A stretch of 64,000 bases of DNA from an uncultured delta proteobacterium (lineage in GTDB: Bacteria; Desulfobacterota; Zymogenia; Zymogenales; Zymogenaceae), in the NCBI GenBank assembly GCA_963735595.1, contig CAVTLK010000004.1, positions 288,001 to 352,000 on the forward strand, in the 5' to 3' direction. The notes under the pieces are model-generated. The model was not told the DNA's origin, made no database searches, and saw nothing but the letters and a program-made list of their open reading frames with translations. Within the stretch, counting starts at the first letter, position 1. Each line of letters starts with the position of its first letter. The translations under genes and the position numbers were made by a program. Below, piece after piece: positions 6,517-59,864 of this stretch.

Positions 6517-7113
6517 ATGACGTTTGATTCGCGTCGGGGTGGATACGTCTCGTTTGCCGCCGTCAAGGCGGCGACCGGCCTCACCGACCTGGTGCTCGAA
6601 TGCGGCGTGGAGATAAGCCGGTCGGGGATGGCGCTCTGCCCCTTCCACGACGACTGGCGGCCGTCGCTCTCGATCCGGGGGGAGCGCTGGCACTGCTTCG
6701 GGTGCGGAGCGCACGGGGACGTGTTTGACTGGTGCGAGCGCTTCCACCGGATGGACACGGGCGGGGCGCTCCGGTACCTGGCGGCGCGGGCCGGGTTCGC
6801 GCGCGTTTCGTCCGGGGGGGCGGCGGCCCCCGTGCCCACGCCGGAGGAGGCGGCCGCGCGAAGGCGGAGGGAGCTGCGGGACCGCTTCTTTTCGTGGATG
6901 CACGACGGGCGGGGCAAAAACGCCGAGCTCATCCGGCGGCTGGATAGCATCATCGGCGCTTTAATCAAGACGCCGGAGGACCTCGCCACGGAGACGGCGG
7001 AGTATCTGTATGACAAACGGACGCGGGCCGAGGGGGCAAAGGAGACGCTGTGGGACCGGGACTGGGAGGTGCTGGCGGAATACTATCGGGAGGAGACGAT
7101 TGGCAAAGTATAG
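6517..7113 (+). CDS. CHC2 zinc-finger protein (primase zinc-binding domain, no TOPRIM)
   Basis: CPFHDDWRPSL..WHCFGCGAHGDVFD..ALRYLA matches zf-CHC2. Confidence 0.88.
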   Translation: MTFDSRRGGYVSFAAVKAATGLTDLVLECGVEISRSGMALCPFHDDWRPSLSIRGERWHCFGCGAHGDVFDWCERFHRMDTGGALRYLAARAGFARVSSGGAAAPVPTPEEAAARRRRELRDRFFSWMHDGRGKNAELIRRLDSIIGALIKTPEDLATETAEYLYDKRTRAEGAKETLWDRDWEVLAEYYREETIGKV

Positions 7114-41711: not shown

Positions 41712-43176
41712 ATGCCGAAAAAGACCGAAAAACCGGCCCCCCAATCACCTCTCTCCAAACTCCCCGCGGTGGACAAGCTTCTGTCTCATCCGCACGTCAG
41801 GGAGCTTTCGGAGCGGTTTCCCGCGATGGTGGTCAAACAGGCCGTTCGGGAAGCGGTATCCGACGCCCGCAGGCAGCTCAAGGAACAGCCCGCGTCCGAC
41901 GTGATTGCCGAGCCGGCCCTCCTTTCACTGATCGAGGAGTGGCTGCTGATGTCGATCACGCCGCGGCTCGTGCCGGTTATCAACGCAACCGGGATCATCC
42001 TCCATACCAACCTCGGACGGGCGCCGCTGGCTAACGAGGCGCTCGATCATGTCGCGGCTATCGCCTCGGGCTATTCAAATCTCGAATTTGACCTCGACGA
42101 AGGACGGCGGGGGTCGCGCCGTGACCACCTCTCGTGCGCTGATAACCGAAATCACCGGCGCCCCGGCGTCCGTGGTCGTCAACAACAATGCCGCGGCGGT
42201 CCTTTTGGCGCTCAATACGCTGGCCGATGGTCGGGAGGTAATCGTCTCCCGGGGCGAGCTTGTGGAGATCGGCGGCGCGTTCAGGATTCCCGACGTGATG
42301 GAAAAGAGCGGCGCCCGCCTGCGCGAGGTGGGGGCGACCAACCGGACGAGGCTTTCCGACTACGAACGCGCCATCGGCTCCCAGACGGGGCTGCTGTTGA
42401 AGGTTCATACATCGAACTACCGGATCGTCGGGTTTACCGAGGAGGTCACCGCAGCCGAGCTTGTCGCCCTCGGAAAGCGGTACGACGTGCCGGTCATGGA
42501 GGACCTCGGCAGCGGCTCGATTATCGACCTGACCCCCTGGGGGCTCCCCCACGAGCCGACCGTCCCGGAGGTGGTCTCGTCGGGCGTTGATATTATCACG
42601 TTCTCCGGGGATAAGCTGCTGGGCGGGGGGCAGGCCGGCTTCGTCATCGGGGCGCTCGATTACGTCGAGCGGGTCGCGAAAAACCCCCTGTACCGGGCCA
42701 TGCGCGTCGATAAGATGACGCTGGCCGCTGTCGAATCGACCCTCATGCTGTACCGCGACCCGAACGAGGCCCGGCAAAAGATCCCCGTCGTCAGGATGAT
42801 CACGATGTCCTACGACGAGACGAAGCGGCGTGCGCAGGGCATCGTTCGGCAGCTCAACCGGGAGCCCCACCCGAACCACGACGTCACCACCGTGGACGAC
42901 GTCTCCGGAGTCGGCGGCGGGGCCTTCCCAACTTCCGAACTGCCCGGCCGGGTGGTTACGATCATCCCGCTGGCCGAGAGCCCCGTCAGGCTCGAGGAGC
43001 GCCTGCGCCGGCAACCGGTCCCTATCGTGGCCCGGATTGCCCATGAACGACTGATCCTGGACCCCCGTACAATCACCGACCGCCAGATGCCGGACCTGAT
43101 CCGGGGGACGGCGGCCGCGCTGCGGGGGGAGACGGGATCCCGGCATAGCAACAGACCCGAAAAAGACAGTGTGTGA
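41712..43176 (+). CDS. selA: L-seryl-tRNA(Sec) selenium transferase (frameshift at ~42133)
   Basis: VINATGIILHTNLGRAPL, YSNLE, VNNNAAA, SRGELVEIGG.FRIP, VHTSNY, EDLGSG, FSGDKLLGG. Confidence 0.95.
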
Positions 43177-43187
43177 GGAGGAGTGCG

Positions 43188-43442
43188 ATGTCCGAAGAGG
43201 TAATGGTTGGAGAGGTCATCAAGTTTTTTGCCAAGCCGTCCGTTGCGGCGATAAAGGTAACCGGCCCCATCAAGGTCGGCGATGAGCTCCATTTCAAGGG
43301 CGCCACGACCGATTTTACCGGGGTGGTGGCCTCGATGCAGATCGATAACGCCGAGGTGACGGACGTCCGGTCGGGGGCGCTGGTAGGGATAAAGATCGCC
43401 GACAAGGTCCGACCGGGGGATCACGTTTTTAAAAAGCCATAG
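43188..43442 (+). CDS. Small translation-factor domain II-like beta-barrel protein
   Basis: VG.V..FF.K.SVA, IKVGD.L.FKG.TTDF...V.SMQID, VGIK..KVR.GD.V. Confidence 0.75.
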   Translation: MSEEVMVGEVIKFFAKPSVAAIKVTGPIKVGDELHFKGATTDFTGVVASMQIDNAEVTDVRSGALVGIKIADKVRPGDHVFKKP

Positions 43443-43443
43443 C

Positions 43444-44338
43444 GTGAAGACTATGCTCATCGAAATCAAGGGCCTGCACCACGTGTTTTTCCCGGGGACG
43501 CCCCTTCAAAAGGCCGCGCTGTCGGGGATTGACCTTGCAATCGACCGGGGCGAGTTCATCGCCCTTATCGGCCGGACCGGCTCGGGAAAGACGACGCTGG
43601 CCCTTTCCCTCAACGGGCTGTTGATCCCGACCAAGGGCAGCGTCCGCGTCGGCGACATCGAGGTCAAACCCTCGACAAAGAAGACCGCGCGGCTCCGGGA
43701 TCGGGTGGGGCTGGTCTTCCAGTACCCGGAGCACCAGCTCTTTGAGGAGACGGTCATGGCCGAGATATCGTTCGGCCTCGTGAACCGGGGGGGGCTTTCC
43801 GAAGACGAAATCCGTACCCGGGTCTACGGGGCCGCGCGCCTGGTAAACCTTGACCTCGACCGATTGGCCGACCGCTCGCCGTTTACCCTGTCGGGGGGCG
43901 AGCAGCGCAAGGTCGCCATAGCTTCGATTATCTCCATGGACCCGGATATCCTGGTTTTCGACGAGCCGACCCAGGGGCTGGACTCCCGTTCACGCACCGA
44001 GACGCTGCAGAAATATCAAGGAACTCAACGGCCGGGGAAAGACCGTTATCATCATCTCGCACGACATGGAAGAGATCATCCGGGTGGCCGATCGGATCAT
44101 TATCCTTGACCGGGGTAAAATTGTCCTGGATCGCTCGCCCAAGGCGCTCTTTGACGACCCGAAGGCCCTGAATACGGCGCGGCCGTTTTTGCCCGATGTC
44201 ACCCAGTTATTAATCGGTTTGAAGGAGAAGGGATGGGATATCAAGACAAATACCTATCGTTCGGACCGGGCGCTGAGCGAGATATTGTCCGCCCTCGGCC
44301 CCGACGCGCCGGAAGGGCGCGGGAGGATACGCGCATGA
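43444..44338 (+). CDS. ECF transporter ATPase EcfA2 (frameshift at ~44010)
   Basis: GTP....AL, GRTGSGKT, FQYPEHQLFEETV, SPF.LSGGEQR, DEPT. Confidence 0.88.
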
Positions 44339-44933
44339 GCGGCATCCGGCGTCTCTCGTACGTCCTGCTGATATCGGCTGCCGCGATGCTCTGGGGGTGC
44401 CATGCGGCGCCGCCCGAGGGAGAGGGAACGCCCGCGAAGGGCGGCGTTTTCGCCGACGTGATCGCGGCCGTCGAAACGGTCAATACATCCATACCCGATC
44501 CCGGAGAGCGTGACTCCGACGTGCCGCGCGGCGAATGGAAGCTCATCCTGGACGCGCGGCAGCGATTCACGGTGCCCCGCATCGTGTCCGACTACTCCGC
44601 GGAGACCGATTACTACGAACCCGAGGAGGCGGATACGGCGGGCAGTACGGACATGACACGGGGGGACGCACTAGACGTTATCCTTGACGCCGAGTGGGAC
44701 GAGTATACGACGCCTCTCGAACTCGGTTCTTTCCGAGACGGCCGACCCGCAGCTGGTAAAGGTACGCCGAGGAATCGCTCGCGGATTTCTACCGGGACCT
44801 GCCGATCCTGATGGACGCGGTACCGGACACGATGAGGGAGCGGGTGCTCCATATCGTCGTGTTGAGGTATTTCAATACGATCCTGCGGGCGGGGGTGGAC
44901 CCCCGTCTCTATACGCTCATGCAACCCCGCTAA
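44335..44933 (+). CDS. Hypothetical lipoprotein (frameshifts at ~44725-44780)
   Basis: Lipobox LWGC; coding-like continuation DFYRDLPIL..QPR* in another frame. Confidence 0.55.
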
Positions 44934-44962
44934 AAAAGGCCGGGGACAATAGGGAGCACGTC

Positions 44963-46726
44963 ATGCGACAAAGAATCCGGATTTCGGCAATCGCCCTGGG
45001 CGTAGTGGTCGCGGTCGCGATGAGCATTACGCTCGTAATGAGCCTCGGGGACGCCCGGGCGGAAGCCCCCGACGAGCTTCTCGGGCTCGTCCCCGAAAAC
45101 GTCGAGTCCCTTATCTATCTGCGCGACCTGAGACAGGGGCTCTCGCCGTTTCTCGGGAGCGACTATTATGACGAGGTGAGCGACCTTTCCGTCTTCGACG
45201 GTCCGTTCAAGAGCGATCTCTCAGCGCCGCTCCTCACAAAACTCGGCGATTTTGAAAAATCGACGGGCATCCGTCCGACACCGCGCCGGGTGTTGTGGAT
45301 GGTCGGCAAACGGGCCATCTTTTTTACCACGAGACTGCCTTCCGGCACGGCCTCGGCGGGGATAATCGAGACGGGATTTCTCAAGCGTCTGGTCATCAGC
45401 GCCGCCTCGATCTTTTCGGGCGGCGTCGCCAAGGAGGACTGGGGGACCTATTCGGTCTGGGTGGTCACGGCCGGCGGCAAGCATATATATTACAAATCGA
45501 CAAAACAATACACGGTCTTTTCCGATTCGGCAGAGCTGTTCAAGAGCCAGTGGGAGATAGTATCGGGAAGCGGTTCCGCCGCGATCACGAATAACCCCCG
45601 TTTCACGGGTCTCCTCTCACGTTTGCCCGGCCAGTACCACATCCTCTACTACTCGACGAGCGTCATGAACCCTGATCCCGAAAAGAAGGGGCTCCGGGCG
45701 CGGATGGTGCGGCTGTTGAAAGGTACGGACGCGGTAGCGGCCACAATATCCTTTACCGAGACGGGGCTTGACGCCTCGGTCCTGGCCCCGTACGGTACGG
45801 CGGAGGACGCTGCCGACCTTATGGCCCTCGGGATGCTTACCGATACGCCGTTGATCGACCTCGGGCAGATCCCGGGGGAAACGGCGGGCCTGATCGTCTT
45901 TCGGGCCTTCGACCCGGGTATCGTCTACACGCACTTTTCAAAGAGCTGGTTCGGGGACGTTACCGAGCGGATCGCCTATATCTCCGTGCTCAAGACGTGG
46001 AAAGAGAAGGGGGGATTCGATCTCGAGGGAGGCATCATCAACAACCTCGGCAGGGGTGCGACGGCGGCGCTCGTCGGCCTCGGCTGGGAGGCCCAAAAGC
46101 CGCACCTGAAGGTGATAGCCTCCGTGGGCGTGAAGCCGGGCGGCGAGGCCGCGCTCGCGGAAAACCTCTCCAAGTTCTTCGCCTATTCGTTTTTCGATGC
46201 CGGCCCCCAGGTCATTACCCTGGATAATGCCACGCTGTCGTACATGGGCGGTTTCCGTGAAAAGAGCATCAATTGGAACGGCTCCGAATATGACGTTTCC
46301 GTAAAGGCAAACCCGGGATTCGGATTCTGGGGAGGGAGGCTTTTTCTGTTCTGGGATCTCTCGGCGGTCCAGCGGCTCGTCGACAACGCCGCGCTCTCGT
46401 CGATGAAGGAGGCGGGAAACCTCTTTGACCGGGACTTCCTCATTAAATCGGCGGCGTTTATCGAGGCCCAAAAGAAGATCCCCGCCGACAATTACGATCT
46501 CTACGGCTATGTTGACGGGAACAACGCGGTCTCGCTCCTGGAGGATTACCTGGTCAATCTCTCGGCCAACTATACCTATTTTCTCTATCAGGATTCGGAA
46601 AAGCGGCTGCTGCCGCTTCTGGAACTGACGCGGCACGCGTTTGTCTCATGTTCCGGGGGCATTAACTTCTCGGGTGACGCCATAGAAGGCACGGTTACGC
46701 TCACGGCAAAAGACCTCGATGAATAG
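44963..46726 (+). CDS. Exported/membrane-anchored hypothetical protein (position analogous to YfaA/MagB)
   Basis: N-terminal TM/signal, L..VP....L beta-rich body; overlaps the DUF1175 gene. Confidence 0.7.
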   Translation: MRQRIRISAIALGVVVAVAMSITLVMSLGDARAEAPDELLGLVPENVESLIYLRDLRQGLSPFLGSDYYDEVSDLSVFDGPFKSDLSAPLLTKLGDFEKSTGIRPTPRRVLWMVGKRAIFFTTRLPSGTASAGIIETGFLKRLVISAASIFSGGVAKEDWGTYSVWVVTAGGKHIYYKSTKQYTVFSDSAELFKSQWEIVSGSGSAAITNNPRFTGLLSRLPGQYHILYYSTSVMNPDPEKKGLRARMVRLLKGTDAVAATISFTETGLDASVLAPYGTAEDAADLMALGMLTDTPLIDLGQIPGETAGLIVFRAFDPGIVYTHFSKSWFGDVTERIAYISVLKTWKEKGGFDLEGGIINNLGRGATAALVGLGWEAQKPHLKVIASVGVKPGGEAALAENLSKFFAYSFFDAGPQVITLDNATLSYMGGFREKSINWNGSEYDVSVKANPGFGFWGGRLFLFWDLSAVQRLVDNAALSSMKEAGNLFDRDFLIKSAAFIEAQKKIPADNYDLYGYVDGNNAVSLLEDYLVNLSANYTYFLYQDSEKRLLPLLELTRHAFVSCSGGINFSGDAIEGTVTLTAKDLDE

Positions 46727-47776
46727 GTGGGCCGGGCCGCTCCTGCTGATCGTATCGGCGGTAACGGCCATCTCGTGCGCCCGGCCGACCGATATAACCG
46801 TCACTCCTTCAAAGGAATAGGCTTTCGGCGAACAAGGAAGACACCGTGGAGATCGCCATTAACGCGGTGACGGAGGCCGGAACCCCCGTCCGCAGGTACG
46901 ACGGGCCGGTAACGGTGACCCTTTCCGGCCCCGCGGTGACCATGACGGAGGGCGGGCCGATCCTGTTCCACAATGGGGCGGCGGCGGCGCGTCTTATTTC
47001 GACGTTCGAGACCGGCACCCTTTACGTTACGGCCGAGGTGCCGGGGCTTGACCCCGGACGGGCGACGATCGACGTCGTCGGTGACTACCGGGATCGGGAC
47101 GAGGACGGCTTCCCGGACGTGACCGAGCTCTTCGGGGATACCGACCGGCTCAACTTCAGGCGCTGGTTTTGCGCCGTGGCAGAATCCCAGGTGTTCGAGG
47201 AAAACCGGCGCTGGGATGAGCTCAACCGGGACTGTGCGGGCCTGGTGCGGTTTGCCTATATCGAGGCCCTCAAGCCGCACGACGACGCGTTTTTCGCGTC
47301 GTACGCCACGCTGGTTTCGCCGGCCAGCCCGGACGTGAAGAGGTACGCGTATCCCGACGTGCCGCTCCTGGGAACGGCGGTCTTTCGCACGTCGCCGGGC
47401 GCGTTTACGCCCGACGATATCGGCCTCAACTTTTCTGCGGCGGGCACGGCCGAGGCGCTGCTCCAGTATAACGTCGTCTTTCTGGGACGCACCGAGCGTG
47501 ACGTGCTTCCGGGAGATCTCTTGTTCTTTTTCAACCCGGATAACCCGCGGATGCCGTCCCATACGATGATCTACCTGGGCGAGTGGGGAAGAGAGGCCGA
47601 TGACGACGAGAACGAGGACTGGCTGGTCTACCACACCGGCCCGAGGACGAACGACCGGGGCCAGGTGCGAAAGGTGAGGCTGGCCACGCTCAAGGTAGCA
47701 CCCGGACGAGCGGTGGCGGCCGGTGACGGAAAACGACCATTTTCTCGGATACTATCGGCTCAAGATACTGGATTGA
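46719..47776 (+). CDS. DUF1175 (YfaT-like, NlpC/P60-type) lipoprotein (two frameshifts)
   Basis: Lipobox AISC; FRRWF, RDCAGLVRFAY.EAL, PGDLLFF, HTMIY, YHTG, W.P...N..FLG.YR. Confidence 0.85.
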
Positions 47777-47960
47777 AGCCCGTGTCCCCTTTCGAGAGAG
47801 GACGTCGAGAGGGACGTATCACAAAGCGCCGGGGGCGCCGACAGGCGGGGCCTGCCGGTGGTCCTGAGGTACACGGGCAGACTTCGGCTCATCCACGCGG
47901 CCCCTGCGGCCGGTAGCAGTGGATAGATATATAACGGCATACCTATCGACGAGGGAAATC

Positions 47961-50900
47961 ATGAAAAAGTCCCTTATCCTTACCGTCGTGCTTTCTTTGG
48001 CTCTTCCGGCCGTGTCTCGGCGGCTCCTTCGAGCTTTCCACCGACAAGATCTTCGCCCCCGGCGAGCCGGTCTCGGTCACGGTGTCGGCCATGGATATCC
48101 CGACGCTGGATATCCGGCTCTACCGGGTCGACGACCCGAAGTCCTACTTCCTGGGGCTCTGAGGACGTCCACTCGCCGGAGGTCGAGTTACCAGGCGCGG
48201 ACGTATCCTCCCCCTCGGAGATGGTGGGCGCGGTCAAGCGCAAGGCCGGGCGGCTGTTGAGGGACGATTACCGGGGCAAGCTCACCGATAACATCCGCAA
48301 CGACATGGTGTCGGCCCTGGGCCTGCCCCACGCCTCGGAGCCGGACAGCCCCGCCCCCGGAAAGCTACGAGCTCTTCCCGATCCTGAAGCGCTTCAACTT
48401 CCTGAACCGCTGGCAGGAAAACCTCGTTATTTCACGTTCCGGCCAGTGGCAGTATCACACGATTAACCTGAATATCCCCGAGATCGGCTGCTATCTTGTC
48501 GAGGCGGTCTACCAGGACGAGGTGGCCTATACGATGGTGGTGGTTACCCCGATGTCGTTCGTCGTCAAGAATTCGTCCTCCGACAGCCTTATCTACGTGG
48601 CCGACCGCGTGAGCGGAAAGCCGATGCGGGGCGTCAAGGTCTCGGTCTACGACCAGAAGAAAGACCTCCTCTTTAAGGGCACGACCGACTCGGAAGGGAC
48701 CTACTACTCGAAGGTGAAGACGGGCGATTCCAACACGATCTACGTCTTCGCCGAGGACGGCGAGAGCTTCACGCTGGCAGATCCCTATGCCTACTGGTGG
48801 GACGATCGGCCGACGATAAGGTCTATACCTACACCGACCGGCCCGTCTATCGTCCCGGAGACACGGTCTTTTTCCGCTCCATCCTGAGGGAATCGACCGA
48901 CTCGGGGCTCAAGGTCCCCGACCGGGGCGACGACTACCTGGTTATCATCAACGACGCCAAGGGCAACGAGGTCTTCAGGGACGAGCTTCCGATCACCGAA
49001 TACGGGAGCCTGGCCGGCACATTACGTCCTGGGCGGCGAGCCCTCTCTCGGGGAGTACCAGATCGTCGTGGGCCTAAACGGCCAGAATTACTACAGCCGA
49101 TTTAAAGTCGAGGAATACAAGAAGCCGGAGTACGAGGTCAAGGTCAACACGGATAAGGGCGTCTATATCCGGGGCGAGACGATCCGTGCCGATATCGACG
49201 CGGGATACTATTTCGGCAGCCCCGTATCGGAGGCGAAGGTCGACTATACGATTTACCGGTCTGTCTACGAGCGCCCCTGGTGGTGGGGGTACGACTGGGG
49301 CTGGTATTTCATGGACTCCGACTACTACTATGCCCATGATAAGGTCATGGTGGACAGCGGCACGACGGCCCTGGATAACCAGGGTAAGCTCATGCTGACG
49401 GTTGATACATCTCAATATCTCGAATCGGCCGATAAAGATTATATGTTTACCATCGAGGCCTCCGTCACCGATCTCTCCCGCCGAGTGGTCACGACAAGCT
49501 CGGTGGTCAAGGTCGTCCGCTCCTCTTATTCGCTGTAACGGTTCGCCCGGACCGGTGGATCTACGCCCCCGGCGACACGGCGCGCGTGACCGTTACCGTC
49601 TCCGACTTCGACAACAACGGGATCGCCGGCGTCCCGGTACCGTGATCGTACGGTGACCGACTGGAGGACAACGTCGCCCCCGCATCGATGACGCTTACCG
49701 GTATCACCAACGTCGGCGGGGACGCCGTTATTGAATATCCCGTCGAAGACGTGGGCGATCTCACCTTTGTCGCCACGGTCTTCGATAAGGCGGGCAACAG
49801 CACCACCGCCAGGGACAGCTCCTACTCGATTACCGAGGGATATGCCTACGGGGGGGATTCGGGGGGCGGAGTTTCCATCGTCCCCGACAAGCACACCTAT
49901 GCCGTCGGCGATACGGCGCATGTCCTGATCGCAGCGCCGGTTACCGATACGTATCTCCTGGTTACAACCGAGGGGGAGGCGATCTACGACAGCAGGGTCG
50001 TAAAGATCACCGGCGGTTCGACGATGATCGATCTCCCCATCAAGGAGCGGTACGCGCCGAACATCTACATCTCGGTCTCGGCGATCTTTAACGATGAGCT
50101 CTACACCGAGAATAAGAACATCATCATCCCGCCGATCGAGAAATTCGTCACCATCGAGGTTACCTCCAACAAGGCGGTATACGAGCCCCAGGAAAAGGGG
50201 ACCTTCACTATCAAAACGACAGACGACAAGGGCAAACCCGTGACCGCGGAGGTCTCGTTGGGCATCGTCGACGACGCGATCTACGCCATCTCGCCGGAGC
50301 TGGTCGACGAGATACAGAAGTATTTCTATAGCCTCCGCTACCACTCGGTGGATACGTCTTCGTCGCTCTACTTCCGTTTCTACGGGTATTCCCACCGTAA
50401 GGGGCTTTTGGCGGGGCTCCCCGAAAAGGAGACGAAGCTCGCCGACTTCAAGGGGGACAGCCTCGTGGAGCCGGTGATCCGAAAGGATTTCAAGGATACG
50501 ATGTACTGGTCGCCCACCATCACCACCGACAGGGACGGCACGGCCACGATCAGCGTGAGTTTCCCGGATAACCTGACGCGCTGGCGGGCGACGGTGCGGG
50601 GGATTACCGGCGGCGATATGATGGGACAGGTGACCTACACCGTCATCAGCAGGAAGGACCTTCTGGTCAGGATAGAGTCGCCTCGGTTCTTCCGGCAGGG
50701 GGACGACCTGGTGATCTCCACGATCGCCCATAACTATCTCTCCACCGACAAGAACGTCCGATTCACCTTCGAGGCCAAGGGGCTCACGCTCATATCCGGC
50801 AAACCGGTCGACGCAATCGTCCCGAAAAACGGCGAAAAACGGATCGACTGGCACGTCAGGGCCGATCTCGTTGGGGAGGCGACCCTCACGGCCAAGGCGA

Positions 50901-52607
50901 TGACCAACGAGGTCTCCGACGGTATGGAGCTGACTATACCCGTGCTGCCGATGGGCGTCAGGGAGACGAGGAGCGAGGTGGGCGAGATCATCAAGGAATC
51001 GGGCACGATTACCGTAAAGGTGGATAAGCCGGCCTCCACGATAAAGAACGCCGCCGAGCTTGTCCTGACGACAAGCCCCACGCTCGCCAATACGATGCTT
51101 GCCGCCATACCATTTCTGGTCGGCTACCCATACGGCTGAAACGAGCAGGTAATGGCAAGGTTCTTGCCATCAATCATGGTTGGTTCGGTACTGAAGAAGC
51201 TTGATCTGAGCGAAAAGAGCATCGAGAAGGACCTCCCCGACTACATCAACAGCGGGCTCATGGTTCTGTATAAACGGCAGCACGACGACAACGGCTGGGG
51301 GTGGTATGAGTTCGACGAGACCGACCCCTATATGACGGCCTACGTCCTGTACGGCCTCCTGGAGGCAAAACGGATGCTGCCGGAGGCGGGTATCCCCATC
51401 ACGGTCGACGAGGGGGTAATCAAGCGGGGGACGGCCTCTCTCATCACCCAGCTTCCCTCGATAGAGGAGGACTCGGTCAGGGTCTATGCCCTGTACGTCC
51501 TCTCCCACACCGACAAGCTCAAGCTGACCTGGCTTGACGAGATGTTTGAGAAACGGGCCAAGCTCACCTCGATCTCCAAGGCGATGCTGCTATTGGCCTA
51601 CGAGAACAAGGGTGTCGAGGGAAAGGCGAAGGTCCTTTACGACGAGCTGATGAAGGAAAAGGTCGAATCCAACGGAATGGTCCACTGGGGATACACCGGC
51701 GAGCAATTCTACTGGTGGGATTGGGAGGCCGATCCGCTCGAGACGACGGCCTATATGCTCCGGGTCATGGCCAAGCGCGACATAGACAACCCCTTGATCC
51801 CCAAGACGATCCGCTGGCTCATCGTCAACCGAACGGGAAGCTACTGGCGGTCAACCAAGGTCACCGGGAAGATCATCTACGCGCTGACCGATTACCTCAC
51901 CCGGACGGGAGAGACCTCGCCGAATTACACCCTGACCGTTACCCTCAACGGTAAGGATATTAAGAAGAGTAAGATCACCAAGGATACGATGATCTCTGAA
52001 GCGGGATCGATCACGATCCGGGAAGCCGACCTGAAGACCGGGACGAACACGATCGAGTTCAAGAAGGACGGGCCGGGCAGCCTCTATTATTCGTCAGGCT
52101 TTACCTACTACACCGCGGCCGACCGCATCGATCCGAAGAACAACGGGTTCGAGGTGAAACGGAAATATTACCTCCTCAAGCGGGTGGCGAAGAAGGGCGA
52201 GCTGATTTACGCCAAGGAACCCCTGACCGGGCCCGTCACGAGCGGGGACGAGATCCTCGTGGAGCTGACCGTCACCAACGACAAGGACGTGAAATACTTC
52301 CTGCTGGAAGACTACTTCCCGGCCGGGTGCGAGGCCGTTACGGACGATGCGAACTACGTTATCTCCGGCGACGATCTCTACACCGGCGACGCCTACTGGT
52401 GGTACGCGGGCAAGGAATACCGCGACGAGCGGATTGCCCTCTCAATGGAATACTTCGGTAAAGGTACGAAGGTCTTCAAGTATATCCTGAGGGCGCAGAA
52501 TCCCGGCACCTACGGCGTGATGCCCGCCGAGGCATACCTGATGTACTTCCCCGACCGGTCTGGGACGCACGGAGAGCGCGACCATCGTCATTACCGATAC
52601 GAAGTGA
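47961..52607 (+). CDS. Bacterial alpha-2-macroglobulin with in-frame UGA (candidate Sec) at the thioester position; multiple indels
   Basis: Signal peptide; YTDRPVYRPGDTV, VEEYKKPEY, VD.AIY, RKDFKDT.YW, FPDNLTRWR, YPYG*NEQ, Q..D.GWGW, W.STK.T, LED..PAG.E, PAEA..MY.P. Confidence 0.9.
51152..51170 (+). promoter_or_regulatory. Candidate bacterial SECIS hairpin
   Basis: ATGGCAAG-GTT-CTTGCCAT perfect 8-bp stem beginning 12 nt after TGA (51137-51139); loop begins with G. Confidence 0.72.
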
Positions 52608-53629
52608 GCGGCGGGGGATGGGTGGGATTTCTTCATCGGCGGCTTGGCCCCTGGGGGGCGGCCGCCCTCTTTATCGCCGTGGTCTCCTGCTCCCCGTCTT
52701 CGGAGGCGACGCTTGACAAAGACTCCCGGCTCAGGGAGGCCGCAATCGACGCCATGGACGGCCGACCGGGGGCCGTGGTGGTCATGGACGTGGGGACGGG
52801 CAGGATCAGGGCGATGACGGGGGAAGAAACGGCGGCCGGGTGGGCTTTCCCCCCGGGGTCCCTCGTTAAGCTGGTGACCGCCTGGAAGGCGATAGAGGAG
52901 GGAACTCTTTCGGCCCGGAAAAAGGTTCGTCTGCAAGGGGAGCGCCCGCTTTTCGGGGATCGAATACCCGTGCTGGTATCCACCGGGCCACGGCGATCTC
53001 GATCTCGTCCACGGGATTGCCTATTCCTGCAACCTCTATTTCCTTTCCCTGGGCGACACGGTACCGGCCGATTCAACCTACCGCGGCCTCGTGGAGCTCG
53101 GTTTCGGACACAAGACCGGGGTCAACCTCCCCGGCGAGGTGGCGGGGAGGCGTTTCGCCGCCCGACGGACTCGGCCGCGACTATCTCATCGGAAATACCG
53201 ACTCCGTTACGGCCACGCCCGTGCAGGTGATCACATATCTTTCCGCACTGGTAAACGGCGGGAGCGTGTGGGTCCCGGCGGTAACCGGCTCGGCCGGCGA
53301 GATCGCGTCATTCAGCCCGCGGCTCGCGCTACAGGATAGATGCGTCGCGGGCGGCCCCCGTCATCGTCAAGGGAATGCGCGATGCGGCCCGCTACGGCAC
53401 CGCGACTAACGGCGGCCTAGAAGGACACGAGGTCATGGGCAAGACCGGCACGGGGACGCTCCTGGGGGTACCGTGGGAGACGCACGGCTGGTTTCTCGGA
53501 TTTGCCCCCGCCGAGGCGCCCGAGATTGCCGTCGTCGTCTTCCTCTACCGGGGAATGGGCGGGGAGGACGCGGCGCCGGTGGCCCGCGAGGTGTTCCGGG
53601 CATATTTCGAGGAAGGTGCGAACCAGTGA
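52604..53629 (+). CDS. Penicillin-binding transpeptidase-domain lipoprotein (frameshifts)
   Basis: Lipobox VVSC; PGSLVK (SxxK), SCN (SxN), GKTGTG, HGWFLGFAP. Confidence 0.82.
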
Positions 53630-54267
53630 GGAGGACGTGGATCGCCTCGCTTATCGTGATCCTTGCGGCCGCGCAGGCGCCCGCGCTCGATTTTTCACTA
53701 GATCGAGACCAGGCACTTTACGATCAGGTTCGGTGAAACGTCCGCGTCACGAATACGTAACGCGGCCGCGCTCTTCGAGGCGGCCTACGGGACGATTGAA
53801 CAGGTGCTCGGGACAATCGGTACGCGGCCGATCGACGTGGTAATCTTTGCCGAGACGGGCGATTTCACCGCCGAGACGGGGCTTGCCGTATGGTCGGCCT
53901 CGGCAACGATCGACGGGGCGATCTATATGCAGCCGGTCCCGGTGCTCACGGCCCGCGGCGTGCTGGACACGACGATCCGCCACGAGGTATGCCTCGTTTT
54001 TCTGCTCAGACGCTACGGGGCCGACATGCCGGCGTGGCTCGCGGAGGGCCTGGCGGTCTATCACGCGGGCGAGATCGAGGTCCTCCGGCGGGGACTTTTC
54101 GGGGACGCCACCCCTGATCTCGGCTCCGGACGACATCGACGCAACTCCTGTTTGACCGGACCGACCGGGAAAGAAATCGCTGGGGATACGTGATGGCCTA
54201 CGAGGCGGTGCGGTCGATGATAGAGGGAGAGGCCGCGGCGCATGCGCGCAAGGGAAGTACGCGATAA
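53626..54267 (+). CDS. Peptidase MA-like domain protein, zinc motif degenerate (frameshifts)
   Basis: Signal peptide; RHEVCL in place of HEXXH; PAWLAEGLAVY. Confidence 0.65.
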
Positions 54268-54300
54268 TCCCGTACGGGCGGCGAGCCGGGGCCGTTATTC

Positions 54301-54329
54301 TTGACAAATATAGCAGATTTTATTACTAT
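54301..54329 (+). promoter_or_regulatory. Sigma70-type promoter
   Basis: TTGACA-17 nt-TACTAT. Confidence 0.65.
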
Positions 54330-54373
54330 ATCGGCAAAATACAGTTTTAATCGCACTACGAAAGGGTTTTGGA

Positions 54374-54983
54374 ATGAAAAGGAACGTTGTTCTCATTGTG
54401 ACTGCTTTTAGTATCGATCACCGTCCTGACAACGGGCTGTGATCAGATCAAGCAGCTGCTCGGGCTTGTCGCCCCGGGTTCCACGGATTCCGGCCCCGGC
54501 GCGGTGATCCCCGGCACCTCGCCCGGAGGGCCCGGCCCGGGCCCCGCTATTAGAGTGCTCAATTGCTGCGATATATCAAGCCTCAAGGCGGGAATCGTGA
54601 ATCTCGATAGCGCGGGAGATTACACCGGCATTACCGAGACGACGACGGTTCCTTACGTTCCCGGAACGTATATCGGCATCTATTTCGAGTATCTCAGCAA
54701 GACGGGGAAACCCATCCAGTACCGCGAAGAGGAGTTCTTCCCGTATCCGCCCCAGAACTGGAGCCTTTGGGAGGGCAGCGAGGGCAGTTACCGGACATAC
54801 CCCGAAGAAAGCCGGGCCGAGTATACGACCGTACTGACGCCGAGCACTTCCCCGTCCCCGTTCCTGAGCCACTGGGGGTTCAATACTTCCGGGGACCCTA
54901 CCGGGCAATGGAGGTGGGACATCTACTTTGATAACGAGTACTATACGACTGTGGTTTTCAACGTCGTCCCGGCCACCTATTAG
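54374..54983 (+). CDS. Hypothetical lipoprotein with Gly/Pro linker and beta domain (frameshift at ~54415)
   Basis: MKRN.. signal, LTTGC lipobox, GDPTGQWRWDIYFD. Confidence 0.65.
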
Positions 54984-57887: not shown

Positions 57888-59864
57888 ATGAAGAGCAGTA
57901 AGAAACGATATCCCCTCTTCTTCAAATTCCTGATCGGCGCAATTATCGGATTATCGGTCTTCCTCTCTGTCAGCCTTCTCTTTATTACGGGCGTCTTTAC
58001 ATCCCTCGAAAACAAGACGGGAGACGTGCGGTTTCGGTTGTTTGCCGATCCGGGTTACGACGGCAGGATAGTTATTATCACCGTCGATGAAGCGAGCCTC
58101 AATTTCTATCGGGAGTCTCTGGGGACGTGGCCCTGGCCGCGGGAGGTTTTTGCCGCTCTCGTTGACTACCTGACGGCCGGCGGTGCGCGAGTCGTCGCCT
58201 TCGATATGCTCTTTGCCGAGCCGGATCTCGATAATCCCGCCTCCGACGCCGAGTTTGCCCGGGCGGCGTACGCGTCGGGCAGGGTCATTACGTCCGTGGC
58301 CTTTTCTTTACCCCCTCAAACCGGTGACGATACCTACGAAGCCCTCCTCAAGAAAGGATATCTTTCCGAGCATTTCTCGGTCGGTGTCGTTAATGACGGC
58401 ACAGTTGTATTTGAACAACACCATTCCGCAACGCTCGCCTACCTGGGGCTCTTCACCTCTTCGGCCGCGGCCGGTTGCATTAACTTCGTGGCCGATCCCG
58501 ACGGACCCTCCCGGGCGTCGTACCCCCTCTTCCGGTACCGGGATCACTACTACCCATCGCTCGCGCTCGTTTCGGCCGCCCGCTATCTGGGGGTCGACCT
58601 GAATGATGAGAAGGTTACTATCTCAAAGGATAATACCATGACGGTTGGGCCGGTTCGGGTGCCGCTGCTTGACGACGGAAGAATGCTCCTCAACTGGCAC
58701 GGACCATATCATACGTACGACTATTACTCCATCGGCGACATAATCGAATCGATGGCGGCAATCGGCCGGGGTGATGCCCCGAGGATTTCCCCGGAGACCT
58801 TTGCGGATAAGATCGTGCTCGTGGGGACGACCGCGATCTCGCTATACGACCTGAGGGCGACCCCCTTTTCTCCCGTCTATCCGGGGGTTGAGCTCAACGC
58901 GACGGCAATAGACAATATCCTCAACGCCGATCACGTCACGACTGTCGGCCGTTACGGGACGATACTGCTGATCCTGGCGATTTCCCTGATAGCTGCCCTC
59001 ATTTCCGTCAGGCTCGGCTCGGCCTGGATCGGTATCGGCTCGACGCTGGCGCTCCTGGTCTCGTTCACCGCCGCCGTCGTTCTTCTGTTCGTCTTCGGGC
59101 GGATCATGGTGGAATTCGTAGCGCCGACGTCGGCCCTCCTGCTATCGTTCGTGTCGGCCCTCGTCTTTAACTACGTGACCGAGGGTCGGGCCAAACGAAA
59201 GTTCAGGGAGGCCTTTGCGAAATACGTCTCGCCGCAGGTGGTCGACGAGATCAGCAAAAACATCGACGACTTGAAACTGGATACCGGGGACCGCAGGGAT
59301 ATCTCCATTCTCTTTTCCGATATCCGCGGGTTTACCAGCATGAGCGAGAAGCTGGCCCCGGAAGAAGTCGTGCGGAGATTGAACATCTATTTCAAGGCGA
59401 TGGTGGAGGTGGTCTTCCAAAACGACGGCACCCTGGATAAATACGTCGGCGACGCCATCATGGCGTTCTTCGGGGCGCCCAAGGACGATCCCGAGCACGC
59501 CCGCAAGGCGTGCCGCTGCGCACTCGGAATGAAGCAGCAGCTCGAGGCCGTCAACGAGCACCTCGCGGCCGAAGGGATACCGCCTATGAAGATCGGCATC
59601 GGTATCAACACGGGAGAAGTCGTCGTCGGCAATATAGGATCGGAGCGCCGGATGGACTATACCGTTATCGGGGACAGCGTCAATCTCGCGTCGCGGCTGG
59701 AGTCAATGAACAAGGAATTCGGCACAACCATCATCATCAGCGAGTTTACGCTTGGCGAGGCGCCGGGGTTTGTGGTCAAAGACCTGGGCTCCGTCCGTGT
59801 AAAGGGAAAGGAAGAAAGCGTCAGGATATACGAGCTTACCGGGGAGAAGGAAGGTCAAAGATGA
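57888..59864 (+). CDS. CHASE2 adenylate/guanylate cyclase
   Basis: VDEASL..G.WPWPR, FDMLFAEP, PGVE..A; FSDIRGFT, DKYVGDAIMAFFGAP, GNIGS..R.DYTVIGDSVNLASRLE. Confidence 0.94.
   Translation: MKSSKKRYPLFFKFLIGAIIGLSVFLSVSLLFITGVFTSLENKTGDVRFRLFADPGYDGRIVIITVDEASLNFYRESLGTWPWPREVFAALVDYLTAGGARVVAFDMLFAEPDLDNPASDAEFARAAYASGRVITSVAFSLPPQTGDDTYEALLKKGYLSEHFSVGVVNDGTVVFEQHHSATLAYLGLFTSSAAAGCINFVADPDGPSRASYPLFRYRDHYYPSLALVSAARYLGVDLNDEKVTISKDNTMTVGPVRVPLLDDGRMLLNWHGPYHTYDYYSIGDIIESMAAIGRGDAPRISPETFADKIVLVGTTAISLYDLRATPFSPVYPGVELNATAIDNILNADHVTTVGRYGTILLILAISLIAALISVRLGSAWIGIGSTLALLVSFTAAVVLLFVFGRIMVEFVAPTSALLLSFVSALVFNYVTEGRAKRKFREAFAKYVSPQVVDEISKNIDDLKLDTGDRRDISILFSDIRGFTSMSEKLAPEEVVRRLNIYFKAMVEVVFQNDGTLDKYVGDAIMAFFGAPKDDPEHARKACRCALGMKQQLEAVNEHLAAEGIPPMKIGIGINTGEVVVGNIGSERRMDYTVIGDSVNLASRLESMNKEFGTTIIISEFTLGEAPGFVVKDLGSVRVKGKEESVRIYELTGEKEGQR

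Follow-up and report, generated by a model that had tools for sequence, protein, structure and literature searches.

A predicted SECIS element at an in-frame UGA in the thioester position of a bacterial alpha-2-macroglobulin

Background

Bacterial SECIS elements are described in Fig. 2 of PMC13188914 as hairpins with a loop of 3-9 nt and an upper stem of 4-16 bp, where the first or second base of the loop is a G, the distance from the UGA to the loop is 16-37 nt and the energy is -7.5 kcal/mol or lower. Table 1 of the same paper (2026) gives 119 prokaryotic selenoprotein families and BSepDB (PMC13326102) gives 111. For the Salmonella alpha-2-macroglobulin, the part of PMC4498604 that deals with the ester-protecting pocket describes it as two tyrosines of the thioester domain together with a Met-Tyr of the C-terminal domain. 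The host of the macroglobulin studied here belongs to a class of Desulfobacterota whose members are presented in passages of bioRxiv 2021.03.22.436540 as Gram-negative anaerobic fermenters, and selenium is not mentioned in those passages.

We analysed a stretch of 64,000 nucleotides, referred to as the window, together with its own genome (G000) and nine other genomes of the family (G001-G009; relatives labelled Ca. Zymogenaceae). An earlier note on this DNA had described a SECIS-like hairpin right after an in-frame UGA.

The macroglobulin gene and its operon

The UGA is located in a macroglobulin gene which forms an operon with selA, a DUF1175 gene and a penicillin-binding protein gene among others.

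41754..43131, + strand: selA (selenocysteine synthase), with one frameshift in the assembly
46810..47773, + strand: DUF1175 gene, operon partner upstream of the macroglobulin
47961..52607, + strand: alpha-2-macroglobulin gene of about 1,550 codons
52664..53614, + strand: penicillin-binding protein gene coding for a transpeptidase domain alone, frameshifted in the assembly, operon partner on the downstream side

The operon runs in the order selA, ECF-type ATPase, two unknown genes, DUF1175, macroglobulin, penicillin-binding protein and two further unknown genes. The penicillin-binding protein has the transpeptidase domain only and is not PBP1c. Judged by its genes, the operon mixes the type I and type II traits that are described in parts of PMC5764988. 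Four operon genes (window 44335-46717 and 53702-54974; about 188, 605, 222 and 232 aa in G006) were found to be conserved across the family and gave no Pfam match; these may be partners like MagA/B/C/E/F. A gene with CHASE2 and adenylate/guanylate cyclase domains is located downstream of the operon (57888-59864). The selA gene lies four genes upstream of the macroglobulin in seven of the ten family genomes (window 41754-53614, L063-L068), both Cys forms included, and on another contig in G007-G009. The position of selA beside the operon was dropped as evidence for selenocysteine in the macroglobulin, since the Cys genomes G001 and G006 have selA there too and G007-G009 do not.

The assembly contains about 15 small indels in the macroglobulin gene at 47942-49676 and one near 52548, with none that shifts the frame in between; three 2-nt gaps near 51211-18 amount to a single in-frame difference of 6 nt. 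A second in-frame TGA near 49643 sits among the indels and was rejected as frameshift noise. The integrity of the window's macroglobulin is inferred from its relatives because its own copy is frameshifted upstream, like most of the neighbouring genes. The gene is intact in G004, G005, G007 and G008, where it has 1,557-1,574 codons with the UGA as the sole stop.

When the frame from 49646 to beyond 52550 is read through the UGA, it matches A2M_BRD, A2M, TED_complement and bMG10 of Pfam, and upstream pieces of the gene match MG2, bMG3 and bMG5. The domain set and fold of the alpha-2-macroglobulin superfamily are present according to Pfam and Foldseek (MG, bait-region, thioester/TED and C-terminal MG domains). 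An AlphaFold model of 50927-52552, in which Cys was placed at the UGA, forms a single A2M unit (pLDDT 86.8, pTM 0.69) and was matched by Foldseek to macroglobulin and complement structures, with an E value of 3.6e-25 for E. coli 4ziu. Six proteins searched against NCBIfam matched 0 families, so no model was found there. The N-terminus is hydrophobic as judged by eye and a lipobox was observed in none of the eight N-termini checked; the macroglobulin is therefore likely to be exported and soluble.

51122..51148, + strand: thioester motif GYPYG-(U)-NEQ with two pocket tyrosines, from the alignment
51137..51139, + strand: in-frame UGA at the position of the thioester Cys, predicted selenocysteine codon, from the alignment (TGA in 8/10 family genomes)
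52541..52546, + strand: Met-Tyr in the C-terminal MG domain, matching by position the second half of the pocket that protects the ester

The UGA, which is just upstream of the hairpin, is aligned with the Cys of the homologues and with the thioester Cys of TEP1 among them; E. coli YfhM, Salmonella A2M, CD109 and human A2M were also matched. The residues needed for the ester are kept along with the UGA (E, Q, YPY and the C-terminal MY). YPY and LMY were found in the window and in all six full genes checked, where they were matched to the Salmonella residues by position and not by superposition. The intact G005 protein has one Cys only.

The hairpin downstream of the UGA

51152..51170, + strand: upper stem-loop from folding, read either as 8 bp around GUU or as 7 bp around GGUUC
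51148..51175, + strand: possible lower stem, 51148-50 paired with 51173-75, weakly suggested by one-sided G-U changes only

The hairpin was found exactly as the earlier note had it, with ATGGCAAG at 51152-59, the loop GTT at 51160-62 and CTTGCCAT at 51163-70, and the spacing is also correct, the stem starting 12 nt and the loop 20 nt past the UGA at 51137-39. All eight pairs of the stem have pair probabilities of 0.90-1.00, and the energy is -10.5 kcal/mol for 35 nt. The z-score of the fold against shuffled sequences is -2.33 for 64 nt (4/200 shuffles were as good) and -2.61 for 46 nt (3/200). The fold energy alone is modest evidence because the z-score drops to -1.53 over 81 nt and -0.57 over 111 nt. 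In the whole genome, 388 of 109,966 TGA triplets (0.35%) are followed by such a stem, counted as at least 8 Watson-Crick pairs with a G-led loop of 3-9 nt located 16-37 nt downstream of the TGA. No Rfam family matches the hairpin (there were two chance matches of 13 nt). Elsewhere in the window, an in-frame TGA at 6525 on the + strand is followed 34 nt downstream by a hairpin of 8 bp and is flanked on either side by about 65 open codons, which is probably due to chance.

The third codon positions around the UGA are poorer in G and C. GC3 is 0.82 over 903 codons and 16/28 at codons -13 to +17 around the UGA, and the lowest 25-codon value in the stretch (0.56) falls at the UGA site. The dip that a sliding window had been expected to reveal is thus real, although little of it is seen in L049 (20/28) and L050 (21/28), and the hairpin accounts for only part of it. 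Of the 11 A/T-ending codons that had been listed as unusual, the 13 UGA forms described below keep only GTA (+4), GCA (+6) and CCA (+10) without variation. The others vary: these are ATA, CCA, TTT and CCA upstream and TCA, GTT, GGT and GTA downstream, and the Cys orthologue of G001 likewise has ATA and TTT. A constrained zone is therefore present but narrower than the list of codons implied, since it extends only from the UGA to +11.

Conservation of the UGA and the 35-nt block

51137..51171, + strand: 35-nt block of UGA, spacer and hairpin, predicted SECIS region, invariant in 13/13 distinct UGA forms

The macroglobulin gene was found in all nine other family genomes, seven with TGA and two with Cys at the site (TGT in G001 and TGC in G006). 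Among eight metagenome loci, seven have TGA and the remaining one does not cover the site. A set of 13 distinct UGA forms was assembled from eight family genomes and five metagenome loci, from which L052 and L053 were dropped as they are identical to G008 over the compared region. These forms are 64-97% identical to the window's protein and their stop codon is TGA in 13/13, never TAA or TAG.

All 13 forms carry the same 35 nt, which supports the claim that synonymous sites here are constrained by a SECIS-type hairpin. The second-longest invariant run, over 590 codons in eight sequences, is 10 nt, and when the four intact genes are compared over their whole length the run at the site is 38 nt against 14 nt elsewhere. 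After the UGA, the synonymous codons are identical at 9/9 degenerate sites, as against 28/251 elsewhere (173/728 in the four intact genes) and 3/10 just upstream of the UGA; the 13 UGA forms are kin and these odds are therefore overstated. In the macroglobulin stem, 9/11 pairs never vary and 0/11 change on both sides. Covariation is absent because the stem never varies, and the case for the structure therefore rests on invariance, on folding and on likeness to the formate dehydrogenase (FDH) element described below.

Since the assembly is rich in indels and most of the neighbouring genes are frameshifted, an error at the UGA had to be excluded. Short-read contigs that bridge the site, from runs X3 and X4 of two studies, show no change at 51137-71, and one of them has 13 differences in the flanks, yet 51137-71 is unchanged. 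Several metagenome contigs were observed to start or stop inside the invariant block (window 51142-51171). Such breaks are expected because the strains share a stretch longer than the assembly word, and this shared block may hide the site in short-read assemblies.

The DNA pattern PYG-TGA-x-EQ was searched in 401 genomes of the phylum and matched 11 of them. Eight are the family genomes, and the other three were rejected as chance matches outside any macroglobulin frame. The pattern was not found in a macroglobulin in the other 391 phylum genomes searched with it, and nothing was found in viral contigs with a DNA pattern of the same kind.

Comparison with SECIS elements of the same genome

The macroglobulin hairpin agrees with the bacterial model of PMC13188914 in loop size (3 or 5 nt), stem length (8 or 7 bp), a G at the first loop position, distance from the UGA (20 or 19 nt, depending on the reading) and energy, so that all four constraints of the model are satisfied. 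The SECIS of formate dehydrogenase in G000 reads GTGGCA-GGTCT-TGCCAC and lies 18 nt past the UGA. Read in the same style, the macroglobulin hairpin is ATGGCAA-GGTTC-TTGCCAT, 19 nt past the UGA. The closing pair of the FDH hairpin shows a compensatory change between A-U and G-C (4 and 3 of the 7 genomes matched, among 10 searched), which supports the five-base reading of the loop, GGUNN. The selD gene has a hairpin GCGCA-GGTCA-TGCG located 32 nt past its UGA in 8/8 loci, where it is part of the lowest-energy fold in only about 3/8. A second Sec-type molybdopterin oxidoreductase (G000:C1:683859-684899, L104) has an FDH-like UGA (ARI*HSATV) with a hairpin that looks different. The comparison with elements of the same genome, which the earlier note had called for, thus shows the FDH element nearly copied but the second molybdoenzyme gene with a hairpin of another appearance.

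Genome G000 has selA (in the window), selB, a Sec-type selD with its own UGA and one tRNA-Sec. This tRNA is the only one with a UCA anticodon (75.9 bits, long variable arm, G discriminator), and tRNA-Trp has CCA. Two near-identical copies of selD were observed in opposite orientation (G000:C3:6046-6975 and C3:24665-25541), both with the UGA and the same hairpin, and these are either a real duplication or an assembly repeat. Furthermore, a TGA at G000:C2:756603 on the - strand is followed at 17 nt by a SECIS-like GCAGGTTCTGT hairpin and by 239 open codons (KGYH*GPAV), which makes this gene a candidate selenoprotein. As for other Sec control genes in G000, MvhD gave 0 matches, HdrA gave weak partial matches of which none was over the cut-off, and no stops were found inside the matches to NiFe hydrogenases. 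Among the relatives, searches gave no selB in G001 (89% complete) and no selD in G004 (94% complete) or G009 (88% complete).

Cysteine orthologues and residue +6

The Cys orthologues of G001 and G006 have no hairpin; they use other codons and their fold is no better than shuffles (z of +0.60 and -0.70). GC3 at the site is 23/28 in G001 and 26/28 in G006. The same hairpin and GC3 dip in Cys orthologues, which the earlier note had named as the outcome that would overturn its reading, would have spoken against a SECIS, and neither is present in these two genomes. The hairpin therefore tracks the UGA, occurring in 13/13 UGA forms and 0/2 Cys orthologues. Both genomes retain genes for selenium use: G001 keeps selA, a Sec-type selD and an FDH gene that has both its UGA and its hairpin, and G006 keeps selA, selB and a Sec-type selD.

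51155..51157, + strand: Ala codon at +6, with its G base-paired to 51167, the leading C of the invariant +10 Pro codon

Residue +6 is Ala in all 13 UGA forms. Among 129 Cys-type representatives it was observed to be Ser in 108, Asn in 19, Thr in 2 and never Ala, and Pro at +10 is invariant in 129/129. The four Cys forms within the family (G001, G006, P0010 and P0016) all have Ser at +6. The stem needs Ala at this position because a Ser codon would break the G-C pair with the codon at +10. Ala(+6) thus looks like the footprint of the RNA hairpin at the protein level, where accommodating a SECIS within the coding sequence would have cost a change from Ser to Ala. We also considered that Sec might require Ala(+6) chemically; this is disfavoured, as most of the downstream halves that begin at +5 in other lineages retain Ser (many are on short contigs).

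Trees were built without the motif columns; nine rows are split proteins, known as proteins and taken as UGA forms by assumption, and the branches leading to the outgroups are long. The four in-family Cys forms fall on separate branches among the UGA or split forms. The AU test rejects both the grouping of G001 with G006 (p = 5e-49) and the placement of all four Cys forms with the outgroups (p = 9e-48), and the fewest Sec/Cys changes on the tree is 5. The simplest reading of the tree would be one gain of Sec followed by four returns to Cys, with Ser restored each time. Branches are clearly longer for P0010, P0016 and G006 (0.18-0.27) than for the UGA or split forms that are their sisters (about 0.05-0.13), as if the three had evolved faster after reversion.

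Occurrence in other lineages

Public gene callers split the macroglobulin gene into two proteins. As an example, NCBI protein MBN1573732.1 (Ca. Zymogenus saltonus) corresponds to the downstream half, which is entered there as a gene of its own. In a protein search limited to 440-1,400 aa, 18 of 56 matches stop exactly at PYG/PFG, just before the Cys position; 13 of these belong to the family and five are distant (32-53% identical). In the P0061 cluster, which has 58 members with one named Ca. Fervidibacter sp., 13 of the 15 members listed end at the motif. The same holds for 9/10 members of the P0067 cluster (one named Anaerolineae) and for 6/9 members of the P0117 cluster, where the other three read through with Cys. 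Among the best 150 library representatives, 129 read through with Cys, five end at the motif and 16 do neither, and the motif-ending lineages are scattered among the Cys forms in a fast tree. The UGA in these other lineages is an inferred codon since they are represented by proteins only, and the single-member cases P0047, P0114 and P0141 could be nonsense changes.

In the cultured Fervidibacter sacchari, the RNA-seq table of supplement 3 of PMC11535203 includes SelA, SelB, SelD and two MG2-domain proteins (WP_259096277.1 and WP_259096003.1), and the proteomics table (public data set MSV000094290) includes SelA, SelD and both MG2-domain proteins, either of which may be the orthologue of P0061. 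On balance we lean slightly towards a Sec macroglobulin that arose several times (in Ca. Zymogenaceae, Fervidibacter, Anaerolineae and no fewer than three other lineages), that toggles with Cys within clusters of 90% identity and that would carry a genetically encoded internal selenoester as a covalent protease warhead.

Proposed mechanism and alternatives

Selenocysteine at the UGA is very likely because the codon is located exactly at the reactive Cys position and is followed by a hairpin that is conserved letter for letter in the relatives, and we hold with high confidence that this hairpin acts as the SECIS element for the macroglobulin. In the mechanism we propose, SelB-GTP-Sec-tRNA would bind the GGUNN loop and decode the UGA, and the full-length macroglobulin of about 1,550 aa would be exported via its N-terminal signal. 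The Sec would then attack the Gln three residues on to give a buried Sec-Glu selenoester, like the Cys of type I macroglobulins; once Sec is inserted, we consider this step likely from the residues around it. Since the Gln, the Glu and the pocket are kept, the Sec is predicted to form a selenoester which acylates the trapped protease after bait cleavage, and it is probable that an internal selenoester takes the place of the thioester as the protease-trapping bond. Bait cleavage would expose the ester so that a lysine of the protease is acylated faster than by a thioester, at the price of faster hydrolysis.

To our knowledge, selenoesters are known only from synthetic peptide chemistry, and the literature listing consisted of chemistry papers and reviews with no macroglobulin case. 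In the model aminolysis of section 5 of PMC7232547, a phenyl selenoester gave 92% in 2 h and the thioester 8% in more than 40 h. The same section states that more activated esters hydrolyse more; these are aryl esters in DMSO and not proteins. As selenoesters hydrolyse more readily, the Sec-Glu bond of the macroglobulin might not persist.

Sec could accordingly be inserted without a stable selenoester, remaining a free selenol or forming a Se-S bond, with a role in non-covalent trapping or in redox. This is the main rival, possible but doubtful. The greater lability of selenoesters relative to thioesters (PMC7232547) speaks for it, as do the type II macroglobulins that trap proteases without an ester (in the part of PMC5764988 that treats them), the repeated reversion to Cys, and the operon itself, which with DUF1175 and several partners is nearer to the multi-gene type II operons than to the two-gene type I pair. 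However, the UGA forms checked retain the Gln partner, the Glu, the two tyrosines of the pocket and the C-terminal Met-Tyr, the single Cys of the intact G005 protein means that a conserved redox partner is lacking, and the ease with which Cys is exchanged at this thioester-forming site points to the same chemistry.

The remaining alternatives do away with Sec altogether. An in-frame AUG at 51152, 12 nt past the UGA, and the two proteins annotated by public callers would fit a real conserved stop with a restart, giving an ester-less macroglobulin of two chains in which the hairpin tunes re-initiation; ester-less type II macroglobulins do exist, as parts of PMC5764988 relate. Such a split protein is disfavoured because the stop is always TGA (13/13, never TAA or TAG), the AUG for the restart is hidden within the stem and a signal peptide is missing from the second half. 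In the modelled thioester domain the cut would also separate helix 54-65 from helix 72-91, NEQV is kept although it would be untranslated, the four reversions are all to Cys and the hairpin copies the FDH SECIS, which leaves this explanation improbable. It is less probable still that a variant code or suppressor tRNA reads the UGA as Cys or Trp, to yield an ordinary thioester protein or a Trp variant. The Cys orthologues do show that Cys works at the site, but the sole UCA-anticodon tRNA is tRNA-Sec, tRNA-Trp has CCA, and TGA ends ordinary genes, including the macroglobulin gene itself in most relatives. Lastly, the roughly 15 small indels in the macroglobulin gene and the frameshifts in most neighbours would suit a sequencing error or a recent nonsense mutation in an error-rich assembly. 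The same codon occurs in 13 distinct sequences from four genera and metagenomes, and the bridging contigs from two other studies are unchanged at 51137-71; this explanation is refuted, in line with the view of the earlier note that a random base-call error is an unlikely source, given that UGA and block are the same in the 13 forms and the short-read contigs. We therefore retain selenocysteine at the UGA, with an internal selenoester as its predicted use.

Comparison with known systems

Alpha-2-macroglobulin is absent from the 119 families in Table 1 of PMC13188914, and the whole text of that paper contains none of the terms macroglobulin, thioester, MG2 and A2M. Macroglobulin terms are also absent from deep-Sep (PMC12013277; main text and supplements), from BSepDB (PMC13326102; main text and the portion of its supplement that was searched) and from the main text of the preprint by Haft and Gwadz. 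No report of a Sec macroglobulin was found in the literature listings, with Haft and Tolstoy 2025 and Deng et al. 2026 outside their scope. Public databases now annotate such genes as two broken halves.

The hairpin resembles bacterial SECIS elements, including those of FDH genes, in its location in the coding region after the UGA, in its small G-led loop and in its spacing within 16-37 nt, and its stem and GGUNN loop are nearly the same as those of the FDH element in G000. It differs from them in that it is found in a gene family which the catalogues do not count among selenoproteins, forces Ser to Ala at +6 and has no match in Rfam. We judge the SECIS-type element to be real and to mark what is likely a new selenoprotein family.

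With the type I macroglobulins (E. coli ECAM/YfhM and Salmonella SaA2M; 4ziu, 4ziq, 5a42 and 4u48), the protein shares the MG, bait-region, thioester and C-terminal MG domains, the xEQ motif, the YxY and MY pocket residues and an adjoining penicillin-binding protein gene. Unlike in type I, UGA replaces the Cys codon here (UGA-NEQ in 8/10 family genomes and CNEQ in G001 and G006), the lipobox is lacking, the neighbour is a transpeptidase-only protein and not pbpC (PBP1c), and the operon is larger and includes DUF1175. The protein has the multi-gene operon in common with the type II macroglobulins (P. aeruginosa MagD; JGI label YfaS), and its source labels are YfaS as well. Type II proteins lack CXEQ according to the part of PMC5764988 that describes them, whereas the motif is kept here, with Cys in most lineages and UGA in this one. 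The macroglobulin is thus predicted to work like type I without being a plain member of it.

Like the catalogued prokaryotic selenoproteins, the macroglobulin presents a Sec/Cys pair at a conserved reactive position together with a SECIS, which are the standard criteria for a predicted selenoprotein. None of the catalogued ones is a macroglobulin or protease inhibitor, and most are redox or metal-binding proteins. If our reading is correct, this uncatalogued family would use Sec as one half of a strained acyl-transfer bond and not as a redox or metal ligand, which would be a non-redox role for selenocysteine in an exported defence protein. It would also be a natural selenium version of the complement-C3/macroglobulin thioester superfamily, with a chemistry new in biology, and the natural Sec/Cys pairs at 85-90% identity (G001 and L049; the P0117 cluster) would allow selenium to be compared with sulfur outside redox catalysis.
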